From assembly GCA_902541215.1 (NCBI GenBank), contig CACBPV010000002.1, positions 5,775 to 69,774 on the forward strand: a stretch of 64,000 nucleotides of DNA, given 5' to 3'. Under the pieces are notes generated by a model that was given only the letters and a program-made list of their open reading frames with translations, was not told where the DNA came from and did not search any database. This document shows, piece after piece, positions 4,431 through 47,633 of the stretch. Numbering within the stretch: position 1 is the stretch's first letter; the number at the start of each line of letters is the position of its first letter. The stretch is from an uncultured Alphaproteobacteria bacterium. Its GTDB lineage: Bacteria; Pseudomonadota; Alphaproteobacteria; HIMB59; GCA-002718135. The position numbers were made by a program, and so were the translations under genes.

Positions 4431-5813
4431 ATGAAAAAAAATCCTTCAAGAAATGTCCATTTTTCAAAAGGACCTAGTGAGATTTTAGATGCAATTAATT
4501 CGTCTATAGATATCGATCAACGTCTGTATAAAGAAGATATAACTGGGTCAATAGCGCATGCTAGAATGCTCGGTAAACAAAAAATAATAAATAAAAAAGA
4601 ACAAAGTGCAATAGTTTCTGGACTTAAAGCAATTGAAAGAGATATTGAAAAAAACAAGGTCGTATTTTCAAAAAAACTTGAAGATATTCATATGAACATT
4701 GAAAGTTTATTATTTAAGAAAATTGGAAAAATTGCAGGAAAGCTTCATACTGCAAGATCTAGAAATGATCAGGTAGTAACTGATTTAAAATTATGGATTA
4801 AAAAAGAATCTAAAATTTTAGATAGTGAACTAAAAAAATTTCAGAGAACTTTAATTAATATTGCAACAAAAAATACTGCAACAATTATGCCAGGTTACAC
4901 TCATTTACAGATTGCTCAACCAATAACATTAGCTCATCATGTTTTAGCTTACGTTGAAATGATTGGTAGAGACAGAACAAGACTTGAAGATTGTTTATAT
5001 CGTCTTAATGAAAACCCATTAGGTGCAGCTGCACTTGCAGGAACTTCTTTTCCTATTGATAGAAAATATACAACTAAAGAGTTGGGATTTAGAGAGCCAA
5101 CAAAAAATGCTATGGACACTGTCTCAGATAGAGACTTTGTAATAGAATTTTTATTTGTTCTATCACTAATTGCTGTTCATTTATCAAAAATAGCAGAGGA
5201 AATAGTACTTTGGTCAAATCAACAATTTAATTTTATCAATTTACCAGATGATCTTTCAACTGGTAGTTCAATTATGCCTCAGAAAAAAAATCCAGATGGT
5301 GCAGAGCTTGTTAGAGGAAAAACAAGTATTATCATTAGTAATCTAAATTCAATGCTTAATATTATTAAAGGGTTACCACTTTCTTATAGTAAGGACTTAC
5401 AAGACGATAAACAAATAACATTTAATTCATACGACAATGTTTCTTTGTGTATAAAAGTTATGAATGAAATTTTATCAAAATCTACATTCAACAAAACTAG
5501 AATGAAAGAGTTGATTGATAATTCAAATGCAACCGCTACCGATTTGGCTAATTGGTTGGTTCAAAAACTTAGATATTCATTTAGAGATGCTTATGTTGTT
5601 ACAGGAAAGATTGTTTCTTATTGTTCAAAACAAGATAGAAACATAGATTCATTATCTCTTGGAGAATTAAAAAAATTTGACAAAAATATAACAGCTGACG
5701 CAAAAAAAGTGCTATCAGCTTCTAACAGTGTTAAATCAAAATCAAGTTTTGGGGGTACAGCTCCTGAAATTACTAAAAAAATTATAAAACTTGTTATAAA
5801 AAAATACTTATGA
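4431..5813 (+). CDS. argH: Argininosuccinate lyase
   Basis: 460 aa with the fumarate-lyase signature GSSIMPQKKNPD. Length and overall pattern are typical of ArgH. Confidence 0.95.
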   Translation: MKKNPSRNVHFSKGPSEILDAINSSIDIDQRLYKEDITGSIAHARMLGKQKIINKKEQSAIVSGLKAIERDIEKNKVVFSKKLEDIHMNIESLLFKKIGKIAGKLHTARSRNDQVVTDLKLWIKKESKILDSELKKFQRTLINIATKNTATIMPGYTHLQIAQPITLAHHVLAYVEMIGRDRTRLEDCLYRLNENPLGAAALAGTSFPIDRKYTTKELGFREPTKNAMDTVSDRDFVIEFLFVLSLIAVHLSKIAEEIVLWSNQQFNFINLPDDLSTGSSIMPQKKNPDGAELVRGKTSIIISNLNSMLNIIKGLPLSYSKDLQDDKQITFNSYDNVSLCIKVMNEILSKSTFNKTRMKELIDNSNATATDLANWLVQKLRYSFRDAYVVTGKIVSYCSKQDRNIDSLSLGELKKFDKNITADAKKVLSASNSVKSKSSFGGTAPEITKKIIKLVIKKYL

Positions 5814-5998
5814 TGAACAGATTAATATTATTATCATTTTTGTTGTTTACTTTTAGCTGTGGTAAAGTTGGTCCTTTAAGTTTGCCAGAAGATCAAGTAG
5901 ACAAATCCGTAATTACATATCCATGTGATGAAGCATGTTTAGAGAAATTAGAAGAAGAGAAAAAACGTCAACAATCCGTTATTATAAATACTGAATAA
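5810..5998 (+). CDS. Small lipoprotein, LptM/YifL-like
   Basis: 62 aa. It has a signal peptide with lipobox LFTFSC followed by GKVGPLSLPED, which matches the C-G-x-K-G-P-L-x-x-P pattern of YifL/LptM lipoproteins. The start overlaps the argH stop (ATGATGA). Confidence 0.6.
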   Translation: MMNRLILLSFLLFTFSCGKVGPLSLPEDQVDKSVITYPCDEACLEKLEEEKKRQQSVIINTE

Positions 5999-14088: not shown

Positions 14089-14345
14089 TGGCAACGAAAA
14101 AAGCAGGTGGTAGTTCTAGGAATGGAAGAGACTCGGCGGGTCGAAGACTTGGAGTTAAAAAATTTGGTGGTGAGAACGTAATAGCAGGAAACATTATTAT
14201 TAGGCAACGAGGCACAAAGTTTCATCCAGGTGATAATGTTGGCATAGGTAAAGATCACACAATATTTGCTACAATAAATGGAAAAGTAGCTTTTAAAAAA
14301 ACAAGAGTAAGAACTTTTGTATCAGTTGTTCCCACAGAACAATAA
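14088..14345 (+). CDS. rpmA: 50S ribosomal protein L27
   Basis: 85 aa, [29 protein letters not shown]... is canonical L27. The start overlaps the rplU stop by 1 nt (TAATG). Confidence 0.97.
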
Positions 14346-14359
14346 TCCCAATTAATTAA

Positions 14360-16453
<2,094 letters not shown>

Positions 16454-28706: not shown

Positions 28707-28718
28707 AAGGAAAGTAAA

Positions 28719-28922
28719 ATGAAAGGTTATAGATTTATTACAGATGATGACACTATTGATTTTTGCCAAAGATTAACAGAGGCACTCTCTAATGGATGGA
28801 AATTACATGGTGAACCAAAAATGACTTTTGATCATAAAAGAAAAGTTATGAGGTGCGGTCAAGCAGTTGTAAAACAATCATCAAAAAAATACAAAAAAGG
28901 AATGGATCTAGCTAAAATTTAA
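28719..28922 (+). CDS. DUF1737 family small protein, function unknown
   Basis: 67 aa. MKGYRFITDDDTIDFCQRLTEALSNGWKLHGEP...CGQAVVK matches my recollection of the DUF1737 pattern. It is preceded by AAGGAAAG 6 nt upstream. Confidence 0.6.
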   Translation: MKGYRFITDDDTIDFCQRLTEALSNGWKLHGEPKMTFDHKRKVMRCGQAVVKQSSKKYKKGMDLAKI

Positions 28923-40158: not shown

Positions 40159-40488
40159 CTAAAAAACCATTCTCACTAAGTTAACAGTAATTAAAATCAT
40201 GATAAAATATATAAGATAATTTATTGATACTTTAATGAATTTGGCTGTCTTTTTCGATGTGACATAATCTTCAATAATTGTTTGCAGTCCTAATTTTGAA
40301 TGCAGAAGCATAGATTGCATCATCACAAAAAATAAGAATGCATTAAAATAGGATTTAAAAAAAATTTCTATTTCAGAATAAGTCATCTTTGATAATGATA
40401 ATGCAGAATATATAAACCAAAACGTCAATGGTATTAAAATTGAAGCAGTAATTCTTTGGGTTAACCATTTAAAAGCATAATTTTTCAT
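40159..40488 (-). CDS. sdhD: Succinate dehydrogenase membrane anchor subunit
   Basis: 109 aa, three hydrophobic helices, located between sdhC and sdhA. Confidence 0.85.
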   Translation of the reverse strand: MKNYAFKWLTQRITASILIPLTFWFIYSALSLSKMTYSEIEIFFKSYFNAFLFFVMMQSMLLHSKLGLQTIIEDYVTSKKTAKFIKVSINYLIYFIMILITVNLVRMVF

Positions 40489-40865
40489 GCGAAGTACCAG
40501 ACAACTAAACTAGAAATTAAAGTTAAACATATAACAGCATAACTAGATTTATATACTTGAGATAATTCCATTCCAATACCGAATGACCAATATAATTTTC
40601 TACATCCATTAAATAAATGGTAAAAAATACCGACAGTCCAAATCATTAGAACTAGTTTAAACAAAATACTCTTAGAAAGAGTTTCAAAATAAATATAAAA
40701 TTCAGGACCAAAACTAATTAAAAAAAACCAAATTGAAATTAATAGTGCACCCACACTTAATCCTATTCCAGATATCCTATGAAAAATCGAAAATACTGCT
40801 GTAAGTACTCTTTTGTGAATAGATAGGTGAGGTGATAATGGTCTATTATCAGTCATTTTTTTCAT
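40485..40865 (-). CDS. sdhC: Succinate dehydrogenase cytochrome b556 subunit
   Basis: 126 aa with the RPLSPHLSIHK N-terminal block typical of SdhC. An alternative start at M4 (40856) is possible. It overlaps sdhD by 4 nt. Confidence 0.88.
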   Translation of the reverse strand: MKKMTDNRPLSPHLSIHKRVLTAVFSIFHRISGIGLSVGALLISIWFFLISFGPEFYIYFETLSKSILFKLVLMIWTVGIFYHLFNGCRKLYWSFGIGMELSQVYKSSYAVICLTLISSLVVWYFA

Positions 40866-41057
40866 TTTTTTTATATTTCATAAGTAAGTATTTTTCTTCA
40901 AATTTCAAAATATTAATGGTTTAGTTATTTTTTCTTACTATCACGGAAGTTTGTAAAATGTTGATAAAAAGTGCTAAATTTTATGAAAATCATCCAAATT
41001 TAATGGCAAATTTAACTAAAAATCTTGAATTTTAAATAGATAGATATTACTCTTAAT

Positions 41058-41197
41058 AAGCCGGATAATACTCGTTTCTTAGCTTCGGAGGAACGCCAAG
41101 AATTTTTAATTATCTTACCCGCCGTTTGATAATTAGTTGAGTTTCTTATTCTAGAGAGGTGTCTGCCAAGGTACAAACTAGTTTTAGAGTCCGGCCT
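41058..41197. ncRNA. Candidate structured RNA of unknown class (GC-rich island in the sdhC-upstream spacer)
   Basis: My hand count gives 57 G/C in the 140 nt at 41061-41200 (~41%), against visibly under 20% in the adjoining 190 nt. Every frame contains stop codons. GCCGGA (41060-41065) pairs with UCCGGC (41190-41195). A central 9-bp hairpin forms between 41106-41114 and 41128-41136, with a C-rich 13-nt loop UUACCCGCCGUUU. A further 9-bp helix (41148-41156 with 41182-41190) has three G-U pairs that are only valid on the + strand. The strand and class remain unresolved. Confidence 0.4.
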
Positions 41198-42185
41198 ACT
41201 TTAAATTTTTATTAAAAAATTCTTCCAACTTTTTAGAATATACTTTCGGATATTTGAACATAGCATCTACATGATAAGAGTTTTCAACTAGCCAAAACTC
41301 AGCGTTAATTTTATTTTGACTTGTATAATCTTTAAAAAAATTAAAGTGTCTTGTTAAGATTCTTGTATCAGAGTCGCCATGAGTAAAAAAATAATATTGG
41401 TTCTTTGATAATTTTTTAGCTGGAGATAATTCTCTTGGATCAGTTCCAGTTAAGATTCTTCCAGCTAAACTTACTACTGGCCCAAATTCTATAGTAAGAC
41501 CATATCTTGCTATTTCATCTTTTAAGATCATATTAAATTCAGCAAGTGAACTATCTGCCCACACTGCACGTATTTCCGGTTCTGCATATGCTGCAAAAAT
41601 AGAGGTGCTTGCACCAAGAGATATTCCATGTAATCCAATGCTATTAGACTTGAAACCAATTTTTTTTAAAAAATCAAATGCTCCAAGAATATCATTATAT
41701 GACTTTAAGCCTAAATCATCATAACTGCTTACAGTATCACTTTGGCCGTAGTTTCTTAAATCTATCGTAAGAACATTAAATTTTTTATTAACTAAAAAAC
41801 TTGCAATAAGATTGGCTTCAGACTTACATTTACCATTTGGGCTTATACCGTGTGTTACAATTATAATTGGTCTATTTGGAAAATAATTAAACAGCCATCC
41901 ATTAATCTTAATGTCTAGGTCACGAGATTGAAAGTATACATCTTGCCATTCATCTAAATAATAATCCTTAAAGTTAAAATTTTCTCTTACTTTTTTTCGT
42001 GCAAGAATTGAGTATTCATGTGAATCAACTGTTGTACTCCATGAATTAGGAAGGGATCCTTCGTGTAAACCACAAGTTGGATCTATTTTTAAAATTTGGT
42101 AAGCAACATAAAAACCTGCAGTAAAATAAACTGCTATTAATAAAACTACTGTGCTTACTGAAAATCTAATTATGTATTTCATCAA
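41196..42185 (-). CDS. Membrane-anchored alpha/beta-fold hydrolase, substrate unknown
   Basis: 329 aa with an N-terminal TM helix, the nucleophile elbow HGISLGAS, and a later THGDSD and HVDAM (candidate Asp/His). Confidence 0.75.
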   Translation of the reverse strand: MMKYIIRFSVSTVVLLIAVYFTAGFYVAYQILKIDPTCGLHEGSLPNSWSTTVDSHEYSILARKKVRENFNFKDYYLDEWQDVYFQSRDLDIKINGWLFNYFPNRPIIIVTHGISPNGKCKSEANLIASFLVNKKFNVLTIDLRNYGQSDTVSSYDDLGLKSYNDILGAFDFLKKIGFKSNSIGLHGISLGASTSIFAAYAEPEIRAVWADSSLAEFNMILKDEIARYGLTIEFGPVVSLAGRILTGTDPRELSPAKKLSKNQYYFFTHGDSDTRILTRHFNFFKDYTSQNKINAEFWLVENSYHVDAMFKYPKVYSKKLEEFFNKNLK

Positions 42186-43216
42186 TCTGGTTTTACTATA
42201 GTCATTTCATATAATCTGCTAGCAGTTCTTTTAAATTCCTCTGCTAGAGTATTTATATTATTTAATGAATTTATAGGTTTTGTCGCTAAAATTACTATTG
42301 AACAATTATTTTCATATAACATATCAATTAATCCAATAAATCTTCTGCACGAATCTTTTTTCTGATTATCAAATTCAGGAACATTTTTTAAAAATACCAA
42401 CTTAAATTTATCTGCAATATTCTTATAATCTTCATTACCAAAATTTACTTCACAAAGATTTTCAAAATCTATCATCATTAGATTTGATGTACATTTATCA
42501 AACTCTAGTTCACGACTTTTAGATTTTATTTTTACAGTTGTTAGATGGGAGGGATCAACAAAGCGATTAAATAATTTTTCAAATTCATTTGACGTTTCAG
42601 TTGTTATAGGTGTGAAATATGTCTTTGATTGATTTAACGTTTGTCGGCGAAAATCTGTTTTAATACTAATATCATAGAGAAAAAAATTTTTTTTAATTAA
42701 ATCAATAAATGGTAGAAAATCATTTCTCTGTAAACCATCTTTATATAAATTATCTGGATTAAAATTTGACGACAATAATATAAATATTTTATATTTAGAA
42801 AAATAAATAAATATTTTTTTTATTATTAATGCGTCAACAATATTAAAAATATGTAATTCATCAATAAATATTATTTTGTAATCTCTACTTAAATTCTTTA
42901 CATAGTTTTCAATAGCAAGTTCTTTATTTTCTGATTTTTTAACTTGTTCATGGATTTCATTCATCAAGTTATTAAAATGAATTTTTTTTCCAATCTTGGT
43001 ATTTTGATAAAATAAATTTAATAAAAATGTTTTTCCTGTGCCAACTTGACCATAAAGATAAATTCCTTCAAAAATTTTATCCTTAAAAAATAACTTTGTT
43101 TTACTAAAAGATGACCATACATTATCTGCTTGTTTTAAGAATTCAATTTGATCTTTATTTTTTTTAATAAAATTATTTTCAACAAAACTATTGTATTGAT
43201 CAATAACATTAAACAT
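42182..43216 (-). CDS. zapE: AFG1-like ATPase (ZapE family)
   Basis: 344 aa with Walker A GQVGTGKTFL and Walker B IFIDELH. It shows a 4-nt ATGA overlap with the hydrolase gene. Confidence 0.85.
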   Translation of the reverse strand: MFNVIDQYNSFVENNFIKKNKDQIEFLKQADNVWSSFSKTKLFFKDKIFEGIYLYGQVGTGKTFLLNLFYQNTKIGKKIHFNNLMNEIHEQVKKSENKELAIENYVKNLSRDYKIIFIDELHIFNIVDALIIKKIFIYFSKYKIFILLSSNFNPDNLYKDGLQRNDFLPFIDLIKKNFFLYDISIKTDFRRQTLNQSKTYFTPITTETSNEFEKLFNRFVDPSHLTTVKIKSKSRELEFDKCTSNLMMIDFENLCEVNFGNEDYKNIADKFKLVFLKNVPEFDNQKKDSCRRFIGLIDMLYENNCSIVILATKPINSLNNINTLAEEFKRTASRLYEMTIVKPD

Positions 43217-43352: not shown

Positions 43353-44543
43353 TCATGTTTTATAAATTATAGGTAAAATTGATGATATAACAATCATTAT
43401 GGAGCTAATTAAAAATATAACTGATATTCCATAACCCCAATCAATAATATAACCAAAAACAACAGGCGATAAGGCGCTCGCAAAAACTCCAACTGCATGC
43501 AGTAAAGCTTTGGCAGTTCCAATACTTTTCACTCCATATATTTCTGCCCAGAGTGATCCCATAAAAGGTGCTGATAAACCTAAATTAAATCCAAATAAAG
43601 ACATGTAAAGTACGAATGACCAATAATTATTAAAGAAAAAAAGAATGGTGATACAAACTAACAAAGGTAATAGTACAAAAGGTATTGCTTTCTTTGTATT
43701 TATCTTATCTATTAAGGGCCCTCCTATTAATAATCCTAAAATAGAAAATAATCCAAAATATATATAACCGTTCCCTAGCATTTCCATTGTCCACCCTTTA
43801 ACATCAAAAATATAAATCTGATGAAACATTAACCCTGTACCAATGAATGGAAAGGATGCAGCCAATGGAAAATAGATAAAAAAAACTCGGTCTTTTAAAA
43901 TTTCTGTAATGGTCCAGCTTTTATATGTTTTCTCATTATATATATTTTTTTTAAGGGCAGCATCTCTACTTTTTTGATTATGAAGAATAAAATATATTAT
44001 TGGAATTAAGATCAAAAGAGTCAAAGTTGTTAAAAACCAAAGAGTTTTAAAATTATAGTATGAGTCCAGATTAACGACAATCTTTGGTAAAAACATTATG
44101 CCTAACATTCCTCCAAGTGTTGCAACTGATATTGCTTTACCTCTATCAATTAAAAAATATCTTGCCATTGAAGTTGAACCGGCATGTGTCATAGCCCCCT
44201 GCCCAAAAAAACGTAATAAAAATAAAATAAGAAAAAGATGAAAAATATTATCGAAAATAAAATAAAAACCAATGCAAGCAAAAGCTAGACCAAAAATAAT
44301 ACCTACGGAATATAATCTTAAATCAATTTTATCTATTAATCTTGCAAAGTTTATAAATAAAAATGAACTTACAAGTGTTGCTATGGCATAAACTAATCCA
44401 AACTCACCATCTGTTATTTTATATAGATTTCGAATATCATCATTAAATAATGCAATATAAAAAGTCTGTCCAAAACTTGCAAAGAATACCATAGCAAATC
44501 CGTATACTAAGAGATTAGGATCATTTAAAAAAAATTTTTTCAT
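43353..44543 (-). CDS. MFS transporter, substrate unknown
   Basis: 396 aa with about 12 hydrophobic segments and an MFS-like loop pattern. Confidence 0.8.
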   Translation of the reverse strand: MKKFFLNDPNLLVYGFAMVFFASFGQTFYIALFNDDIRNLYKITDGEFGLVYAIATLVSSFLFINFARLIDKIDLRLYSVGIIFGLAFACIGFYFIFDNIFHLFLILFLLRFFGQGAMTHAGSTSMARYFLIDRGKAISVATLGGMLGIMFLPKIVVNLDSYYNFKTLWFLTTLTLLILIPIIYFILHNQKSRDAALKKNIYNEKTYKSWTITEILKDRVFFIYFPLAASFPFIGTGLMFHQIYIFDVKGWTMEMLGNGYIYFGLFSILGLLIGGPLIDKINTKKAIPFVLLPLLVCITILFFFNNYWSFVLYMSLFGFNLGLSAPFMGSLWAEIYGVKSIGTAKALLHAVGVFASALSPVVFGYIIDWGYGISVIFLISSIMIVISSILPIIYKT

Positions 44544-47558: not shown

Positions 47559-47633
47559 GGTCTCGTGGTGAAATGGATATCACACGTGTCTTCGGAACAT
47601 GTATTTGGGGTTCGAGTCCCTACGAGACCGCCA
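47559..47633 (+). tRNA. tRNA-Arg, anticodon UCG, CCA encoded
   Basis: Hand-folded cloverleaf. The acceptor stem is GGUCUCG/CGAGACC. The D stem is GUGA/UCAC. The anticodon stem is CGUGU/ACAUG with loop CUUCGGA (anticodon UCG). The T arm is UGGGG-UUCGAGU-CCCUA, followed by discriminator G and CCA. Confidence 0.9.

Follow-up and report, generated by a model that had tools for sequence, protein, structure and literature searches.

What does the longest gap between genes in a streamlined marine genome contain? The window, that is the whole 64,000-nt stretch of DNA from an uncultured alphaproteobacterium analysed here, has a 330-nt spacer at 40866-41195, upstream of sdhC. On a crude map of open reading frames (ORFs), it is the longest gap in the window, the runner-up being 280 nt long. 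Its composition is uneven: 57 G/C in 41061-41200 (40.7% G+C) against 18.8% in the remainder (40866-41057) and 30.9% in the window. An original prediction made from the sequence alone, whose G/C count, coordinates and ranking of the spacer proved exact, had proposed an unannotated structured RNA with a terminal stem on the + strand. Covariation, the balance of G-U over A-C pairs, a promoter and the lack of a matching Rfam family bear this out. By its sequence, the island at 41060-41195, bounded by the 18.8% G+C spacer on one side and by the stop codon of a hydrolase gene on the other, is very probably an independently transcribed gene for a structured RNA on the + strand. As far as the available resources tell, this RNA represents a new, so far undescribed family of structured small RNA in SAR11-type bacteria.

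Conservation and distribution of the island

With the SdhC protein as query, 77 loci were gathered from one-genome-per-species contigs (SdhC identity 54-99%), among them single-amplified genomes of Pelagibacteraceae, HIMB59-type genomes and one MarineAlpha5 metagenome-assembled genome (MAG). Using nhmmer, the island was detected in 74 of them, in constant orientation and 180-220 nt upstream of sdhC, while the 3 others are contigs starting within or just before sdhC. The RNA is present once in each of the 74 loci having upstream DNA. A protein search with SdhC returned only close relatives (≥71% identity), non-SAR11 alphaproteobacteria being beyond its reach. A covariance model built from 24 diverse sequences and a hand-derived structure gave one match per related locus, at 90-167 bits, and found no second copy in the 64-kb window.

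Metagenome contigs were then scanned with the pattern GGAGGAACG-N15-45-BCCCGCCG-N25-55-TGCCAAGG, and at least 120 stretches matched. Among the first 80, 27 are GC-rich, mostly non-marine and mostly coding, and fail the covariance model; we therefore consider them as chance matches. The true homologues are the remainder, from contigs of 23-33% G+C. The RNA was found in more than 80 metagenome contigs and, genome loci and metagenome contigs together, in at least 161 loci representing at least 114 distinct RNAs. In peat and soil contigs (L078, L084, L087, L098, L099, L107 and similar ones), a GC-rich stretch that looks protein-coding, GGGAGGAACGTGACAGCACCCGCGCACTCCCCGCCG...TGCCAAGG, fits the three-block pattern. 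It is unrelated to the RNA, and the pattern alone is unspecific in GC-rich DNA. One SAR11-type sdhC locus with the RNA (L053, contig CAYTIE010000056.1) is labelled as an uncultured Flavobacteriaceae MAG, probably a binning contaminant. Viral contigs had no copy, so that the RNA is not a phage element.

The RNA is 136 nt long in the window, 132-145 nt in most lineages and 167-186 nt in one deep clade (L054, L083, L122, L159, L185, L103, L111), where an insertion of about 24-40 nt, including a small hairpin UCAU-UUU-AUGA, separates the 5' strand of the closing helix P1 from helix P5. A first covariance model truncated P1 in these longer sequences. Across homologues, the blocks UUCGGAGGAACG, CCCGCCG and GUGUCUGCCAAGGU are invariant and the surrounding sequence varies. 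These three blocks, of 7-14 nt, hold while SdhC identity drops to 37-45%, which makes the non-coding island better conserved than the SdhC membrane protein. The predicted island is thus conserved across deep SAR11-type lineages, in genome loci as well as in metagenome contigs.

Secondary structure supported by covariation

The alignment backs six helices, P1, P5, P2/P2b, P3 and P4a/P4b, arranged as two stacked three-way junctions: P1 opens onto P5 and the P4 arm, and P5 onto the P2 and P3 hairpins. In the model alignment of 100 distinct sequences, 88.0% of the cells at paired columns are standard pairs, compared to 35-45% when partners are slid by 1-3 columns. Compensatory (two-sided) changes are seen at 27 of the 43 pairs, beyond both the shuffled and the slid controls. 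The covariation score is 0.262, against 0.146 for shuffled columns (reached by 0 of 500 shuffles) and 0.03-0.07 for slid partners, and for five pairing measures the observed value was reached by none of the 500 column shuffles. P5 is partly misaligned in the model alignment, which lowered its score rather than raising it. RNAalifold independently recovers P1, P2, P2b, P3, P4a and P4b. For the window sequence, the supported fold with extra pairs amounts to -35.2 kcal/mol, the unconstrained minimum being -37.0.

Each helix contributes in its own way. In P1, C-G is replaced by U-A at position 2 and G-C by A-U at position 4, the inner end is extended in homologues (UUGU/ACAG, UAA/UUA, UACU/GGUA, UAUAAA/UUUAUA), and the helix, which has many compensatory variants, can be as long as 12 bp in other clades. 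P5 changes on both sides at 5 of 5 pairs, its variants being ACUC/GAGU, ACUUA/UGAGU, AACCUU/GAGGUU (L100) and AAAUAAUAU/AUAUUAUUU (L082). P3, the source of the top mutual-information pairs, has two-sided changes at all 10 modelled pairs, for instance C-G, A-U and U-A at a single position. P2 is paired in 94.5% of cells, one-sided changes being always U-A to U-G. P4a is paired in 98% of cells (variants CUGG/CUAG, CUAG/CUGG, UUAG/CUAA), and P4b in 100%, invariant except for U-A to U-G.

The closing stem GCCGGA(U)/(G)UCCGGC (41060-66 with 41189-95) and the hairpin at 41106-14/41128-36, both drawn in the original prediction, are present and covary in homologues. The prediction had overlooked P5 and P2, and it was wrong about a second 9-bp helix (41148-56 with 41182-90): this helix can be drawn, but it is paired in only 40% of cells among the 100 homologues, no better than in the shuffled and slid controls. 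The conserved pairing in its place is CUAG (41151-54 with 41178-81) enclosing GUGUCU 41159-64 and AGGUAC 41169-74. The direct repeats it had pointed out do exist in the window; the first GCCAAG copy is variable in homologues (GCCUAG, GCCGAG, GCCAGG).

No variation is seen at the tips of the structure, which are GGAGGAA (P2), CCCGCCG (P3) and the entire upper hairpin of P4 (GUGUCU-GCCA-AGGUAC). In all 75 synteny-found sequences, the P2 loop is the same. Apart from a central A-G, its CGGAGG is complementary to the CCGCCG of the P3 loop, and a contact between the two loops is plausible from their sequences. GGAGGAA is also the usual ribosome-binding sequence in the window, so we regard the P2 tip as a Shine-Dalgarno look-alike; no start codon follows it. 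The P4b hairpin (41159-41174) contains the invariant UGCCAAGG. This motif matches what we take to be part of the anticodon arm of tRNA-Gly(GCC), with a loop of 6 rather than 7 nt, and it is complementary to CCUUGGCA, presumably a conserved sequence near the 5' end of 23S rRNA; either resemblance may well be a coincidence.

Strand and coding capacity

The transcribed strand was deduced from the wobble pairs. At paired positions, the 114 distinct sequences read in the + strand sense have 617 G-U cells against 42 A-C cells, a ratio that is reversed on the minus strand, and the RNA strand is therefore +. Examples of pairing possible on the + strand only are GAUCGUC/GAUGGUU in P3 (L035), CUAG/CUGG in P4a, UUUCUU/GAGAGA in P2 and GGAUUGU/ACAGUCC in P1. 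It follows that the RNA gene is divergent from sdhC and convergent with the hydrolase gene. Three origins had been envisaged in the original prediction. A trans-acting small RNA (sRNA) antisense to neither neighbour fits this orientation, whereas an RNA derived from the 3' untranslated region (UTR) of the hydrolase operon and a far-upstream leader of the sdh string would both need the minus strand and are excluded.

Folding energy, in contrast, did not single out the expected strand: relative to shuffled controls, the window sequence has a z-score of -1.55 on the + strand, which is not significant, and of -3.10 on the minus strand. Since these scores favour the wrong strand, single-sequence energy is a weak guide in this AT-rich genome, and it is conservation and covariation, both of which are far beyond chance, that argue for a real element.

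Contrary to the claim that every reading frame is closed, one minus-strand frame is open across the island, as a 54-aa ORF starting with TTG (41012-41176) that has no Pfam match. Among the 114 distinct homologues, 67 have no open minus-strand frame and 92 no open + strand frame. We conclude that the 54-aa ORF is not a gene, given the closed homologues and the lack of a Pfam match, and the possibility that the island is a small protein-coding ORF was rejected, no open frame being conserved across the homologues. Such an ORF could be taken in error for a hypothetical protein, and this may be how the RNA escaped surveys of intergenic regions.

Predicted promoter and 3' end

In 81 of the 108 distinct upstream regions, a TTGAA(T/A) motif begins 35-36 nt ahead of the first base of P1, and most of the other regions have a one-base variant at the same place. 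The -10 hexamer in homologues is TAATTT, TACTCT, TAGTTT or TAATCT (consensus TAnTnT) and ends 6-7 nt before P1, from which the transcription start is predicted at about 41059-41061, at the first P1 base. Judging from these motifs, the RNA gene has its own sigma-70-type promoter, TTGAAT-N17-TACTCT, at a fixed distance upstream.

On the 3' side, the U-rich tail that had been noticed on the + strand after the closing stem recurs in homologues: at least 6 U are present among the 8 bases following the G+C-rich P1 in 76 of 122 distinct homologues, typically as UUUUUUAU. A terminator scan found no simple hairpin terminator on either strand.

Absence from catalogues and surveys

At gathering thresholds, none of the 4227 covariance models of Rfam 15 matches the RNA, the sole match in the window being a tRNA at 47559-47630, and a scan of 20 further loci gave nothing. 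At E ≤ 10 on 40850-41300, only weak matches appeared, to eukaryotic small nucleolar and small nuclear RNA models and to two bacterial sRNA models, with E ≥ 0.2, far below gathering. The island thus matches no catalogued RNA family, in agreement with the original prediction, which had found no convincing match to SRP RNA, tmRNA, 6S and RNase P cores. ARAGORN found 0 tRNA or tmRNA genes in 40800-41400.

Two published surveys of SAR11 were consulted. The sdhC-upstream spacer is not among the entries of Table 1 of the intergenic-region survey of P. ubique (PMC2704228), and the supplementary motif table of the HIMB5 survey has no motif flanked by sdhC or succinate dehydrogenase (PMC6429828). The SAR11 gene for signal recognition particle (SRP) RNA lies elsewhere, between pheA and dnaX (PMC2704228). 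Full-text literature searches found no description of an RNA adjoining sdhC in SAR11.

Linkage to sdhC

In all genome loci, sdhC is divergent and its ATG lies 205-255 nt away from the 5' end of the RNA. Among the contigs retrieved through the RNA pattern alone, nearly all of those whose upstream part reaches 265 nt or more show this arrangement and distance; the few shorter distances are parsing outliers. SdhC identity goes down to 37% among these contigs. The gene downstream of the RNA is less constant. It is usually the hydrolase gene, but ZapE follows directly in L095, L145 and L154, and L162 has a UDG-like gene (4440-5129) in that place. Two loci, one HIMB59-type and one MarineAlpha5, retain a frameshifted or decayed hydrolase gene (L064, 1139-2126, and L056, 1752-2131). 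Wherever it is decayed, absent or replaced, the RNA and its spacing to sdhC are unchanged. As the downstream neighbour varies, the constant partner of the RNA is sdhC or the spacer they share.

This spacer of about 200 nt contains both predicted promoters. On the sdhC side, a T-rich block (TTGAA) and, after it, an A-rich one (TAYACTTA) are conserved across lineages and probably make up the sdhC promoter. Between the two promoters, most lineages other than that of the window have a tandem DnaA-box-like motif, TATCCACAG.CTTATNCACAT, at the place where the window has a degenerate one. The tandem form reads (C/T)TATCCACAG(A/G)(C/T)TTATNCACAT, for example around 2385-2410 of L052 and in most non-Ia loci, and can also be written TATCCACA/TTATNCACA. 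It may be a binding site for DnaA or for another regulator of sdhCDAB or the RNA. A replication origin in the spacer, suggested by these motifs, was considered and rejected: there is no turn of the GC skew, no change in gene orientation and no exact DnaA box.

Features of the locus

Coordinates are collected in Table 1. The genes neighbouring the RNA, including sdhD and sdhA besides sdhC, are all on the minus strand. On the crude ORF map, three other spacers are unusually long, 14089-14368 (280 nt), 28707-28918 (212 nt) and 5814-5998 (185 nt); none of them has an Rfam match at the gathering threshold.

Table 1. Positions in the window of the RNA, its helices, the associated signals and the neighbouring genes.
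Feature	Position	Strand	Remarks
Structured RNA, first to last P1 base	41060..41195	+	covariance model, 150 bits
P1, 5' strand GCCGGAU	41060-41066	+	pairs with 41189-41195; compensatory changes
P1, 3' strand GUCCGGC	41189-41195	+	pairs with 41060-41066
P5, 5' strand ACUCG	41070-41074	+	pairs with UGAGU 41138-41142
P5, 3' strand UGAGU	41138-41142	+	pairs with ACUCG 41070-41074
P2 hairpin	41076-41102	+	UUCUU 41076-80 with AAGAA 41098-102
P2b	41082-83, 41095-96	+	GC with GC; encloses invariant loop UUCGGAGGAAC 41084-94
P3 hairpin	41108-41134	+	AAUUAUC 41108-14 with GAUAAUU 41128-34; loop UUACCCGCCGUUU 41115-27, in which CCCGCCG is invariant
P4 arm	41151-41181	+	P4a, CUAG 41151-54 with CUAG 41178-81; internal loop AGAG
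P4b	41159-64, 41169-74	+	GUGUCU with AGGUAC; tandem G-U/U-G invariant; tetraloop GCCA 41165-68
-35 element TTGAAT	41025..41030	+	conserved TTGAA(T/A) at fixed distance from P1
-10 element TACTCT	41048..41053	+	17-nt spacer after -35; consensus TAnTnT
U-rich tail CUACUUUAAAUUUUUAUU	41196..41213	+	probable 3' end/terminator tract; overlaps hydrolase stop codon
TTGAA block (T-rich), then TAYACTTA block (A-rich)	40879..40912	-	45-75 nt upstream of sdhC ATG; conserved across lineages; probable sdhC promoter
Degenerate DnaA-box-like motif TTATCAACA	40959..40967	-	between RNA and sdhC promoters
sdhC	40485-40865	-	divergent from RNA; first gene of sdhCDAB string; Pfam Sdh_cyt, E = 3e-24
Alpha/beta-hydrolase gene	41196-42185	-	downstream of and convergent with RNA; Pfam Abhydrolase_1 and Peptidase_S9
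AFG1/ZapE ATPase gene	42182-43216	-
MFS transporter gene	43353-44543	-

How might the RNA act?

As a stand-alone bacterial small RNA, the RNA belongs to a well-known kind, but its conservation is unusually deep and its link to sdhC obligate. We propose that it would act in trans through its folded shape, most likely by binding a protein or by relying on loop-loop tertiary contacts, one candidate being a contact of the P2 loop (CGGAGG) with the P3 loop (CCGCCG). It would probably not be a linear antisense seed, and its expression would probably keep pace with that of sdhCDAB, the divergent control region being common to both, in an arrangement like that of micF and ompC. Two observations favour action by shape. 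The paired P4b stem with its two G-U pairs is invariant, which antisense seeding cannot explain, and the three blocks remain invariant at SdhC identities of about 40%, which fits protein recognition or tertiary contacts. Going by the alignment, this pattern of invariance is unlike that of fast-evolving antisense sRNAs. For the mode of action alone, protein binding or tertiary structure coupled to sdh, our proposal is tentative. The account as a whole, a stable structured RNA gene acting in trans by its shape and co-expressed with sdhCDAB, we hold to be slightly the better bet.

Several points weigh against this account. The alignments used for counting were fitted to the covariance model, so that the counts are biased towards it, and the second set of sequences was retrieved by requiring the three invariant blocks, which leaves invariance as an unbiased measure only in the 75 synteny-found sequences. 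The contact between the P2 and P3 loops is out of reach of covariation because both loops are invariant, and a mutual-information scan found no extra tertiary pairs beyond lineage correlation. The ends and the expression of the RNA are read from sequence signals. Of these, the U-tract is interrupted and weaker in the window's own clade (CUACUUUA), because it overlaps the hydrolase stop codon there, and intrinsic terminators do not usually enclose as much as P1 does (about 120 nt); processing may generate the 3' end instead. That the RNA always adjoins sdhC may reflect inherited synteny and not a functional coupling. Lastly, the mode of action is proposed from sequence features.

The most serious competitor to shape-based action, though we consider it unlikely, is a base-pairing regulatory sRNA, co-regulated with sdhCDAB to adjust other pathways, that would use the loops CCCGCCG (P3), GGAGGAA (P2) and GCCA (P4) as seeds. 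In favour of this reading, the gene stands alone, divergent from a metabolic operon, with a promoter of its own and a U-tail at its 3' end; the invariant loops, of 7-11 nt, have the typical length of seeds, and known alphaproteobacterial sRNAs use C-rich loops in this way. However, paired regions are invariant too, including the P4b stem with its tandem G-U, and conservation is far deeper than usual for such sRNAs. Targets do not stand out either. In the 64-kb window, to which the target search was confined, targets elsewhere in the genome being possible, complements of the P3 and P2 loops occur at the chance level (16 against 13.5 expected), none with fewer than 2 mismatches except in the RNA gene itself, and the few other GGCGGG sites are all inside coding regions. 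TTCCTCC is enriched in the window only because GGAGGAA is the usual ribosome-binding site. Predicted duplexes of the RNA with the sdhC leader do not surpass those with shuffled targets (z from -1.2 to +1.8).

More doubtful still is a stand-alone ligand sensor, akin to an orphan riboswitch aptamer, in which the ligand would stabilise P1, and P1 with the U-tract would then terminate transcription; without ligand, read-through would be antisense to the convergent gene or would alter the activity of the divergent sdhC promoter. The three-way junctions and the two adjacent hairpins with complementary loops do resemble an aptamer, the U-tract comes directly after P1, the association with a central-metabolism operon is strict, and SAR11 relies on riboswitches (PMC2704228). 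On the other hand, riboswitches and leaders lie in the 5' UTR, upstream of the regulated gene and on the same strand, while sdhC is here on the opposite strand, and no same-strand gene follows the RNA in the window or in the diverse lineages examined. The convergent gene is variable (hydrolase, ZapE, UDG-like gene or nothing). Moreover, junctions vary and loop tips are invariant, the reverse of most aptamers, and the alignments have no conserved anti-terminator pairing: the P3 loop could pair with the 3' strand of P1, but not in lineages where P1 reads GUCGGA.

Very little room is left for an element of the minus strand, whether it served the MFS-zapE-hydrolase operon as a 3'-UTR structure or terminator, or sdhCDAB as a far-upstream leader or riboswitch. 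It would agree with the orientation of all neighbouring genes, with the better folding score of that strand in the window and with the fixed distance to sdhC, but it would turn the 617 G-U cells into C-A mismatches, against only 42 of the reverse kind. The minus-strand helix UUCUUGGC/GCUAAGAA is disrupted in other lineages (UUCUAGGC with GCAAAGAA), the + strand is the one with the conserved promoter and the U-tract, the RNA persists where the hydrolase gene is decayed or absent, and sdhC has a separate conserved promoter-like block between the element and itself.

A SAR11 version of 6S RNA that genome streamlining had shortened and that had diverged beyond the reach of the Rfam model is just as improbable: size (130-190 nt), paired ends, a strong-looking promoter and universal presence would suit it, and this common housekeeping RNA is listed in neither SAR11 survey (PMC2704228, Table 1; PMC6429828), but the branched, covariation-supported fold is incompatible with the 6S rod and bubble, as P5 bridges the would-be central bubble and the flanking stems are short (7-12 and 7-10 bp), and the Rfam 6S model (RF00013) has no match even at E ≤ 10 on the 451-nt region.

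Comparison with known RNAs

A stand-alone RNA acting by its shape can be set beside four groups of known systems. Like micF-ompC, gcvB-gcvA and oxyS-oxyR of enterobacteria, the RNA gene stands back to back with a protein gene, has its own promoter, shares an intergenic control region of about 200 nt, and is antisense to neither neighbour. The micF, gcvB and oxyS RNAs are loosely structured, Hfq-dependent antisense regulators conserved within a family or an order only, whereas the sdhC-linked RNA has a compact six-helix fold, invariant stems and loops, and a very deep conservation. This comparison is a functional analogy only.

With stable protein-binding RNAs such as 6S, SRP 4.5S and bacterial Y RNA, it shares its size, ends sealed by a terminal stem, near-universal presence in the clade and absolutely conserved blocks that comprise both paired and unpaired positions. 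It differs from them in having no sequence or structure match in Rfam and a branched two-junction fold, unlike the 6S rod or the SRP hairpin, and no partner protein gene adjoins it.

Like purine riboswitches, it has a closing helix leading to side-by-side P2 and P3 hairpins with complementary loops (CGGAGG/CCGCCG) and is highly conserved, but it lies outside any 5' UTR, has no same-strand gene after it, varies at its junction bases, has the additional P1/P4 junction, and matches no Rfam riboswitch model. Finally, the Rfam motifs sucA, sucA-II and sucC are likewise conserved orphan RNA structures tied to genes of the tricarboxylic acid (TCA) cycle. Those motifs are 5' leaders on the same strand as the suc genes of beta- and gammaproteobacteria, while the RNA described here is a separate, divergent gene beside sdhC in alphaproteobacteria, and their models do not match it.

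Significance for SAR11-type bacteria

These results reveal a gap in the catalogues: the RNA is found in every SAR11-type locus examined that has upstream DNA, and yet it is absent from Rfam and from two surveys of SAR11 non-coding RNAs. Its conservation is on a par with that of the cores of housekeeping RNAs, and it invariably accompanies sdhC, with which the succinate dehydrogenase operon begins. With the structure and the 114 distinct sequences aligned, a new RNA family can be seeded, and Northern probes, constructs for in-line probing and baits for pull-downs can be designed.

SAR11 bacteria have streamlined genomes with very few transcription factors, and are thought to depend heavily on RNA-based regulation. 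It is conceivable, though we would not expect it, that the RNA belongs to an unrecognised functional class, confined to SAR11 and its AT-rich marine allies among the alphaproteobacteria and as conserved as housekeeping RNAs, namely a ribonucleoprotein or a metabolite sensor tying sdh expression, hence the TCA cycle and respiration, to the state of the cell. If the RNA does regulate or sense the TCA cycle or respiration, it would bear on the respiration of a large share of marine carbon.

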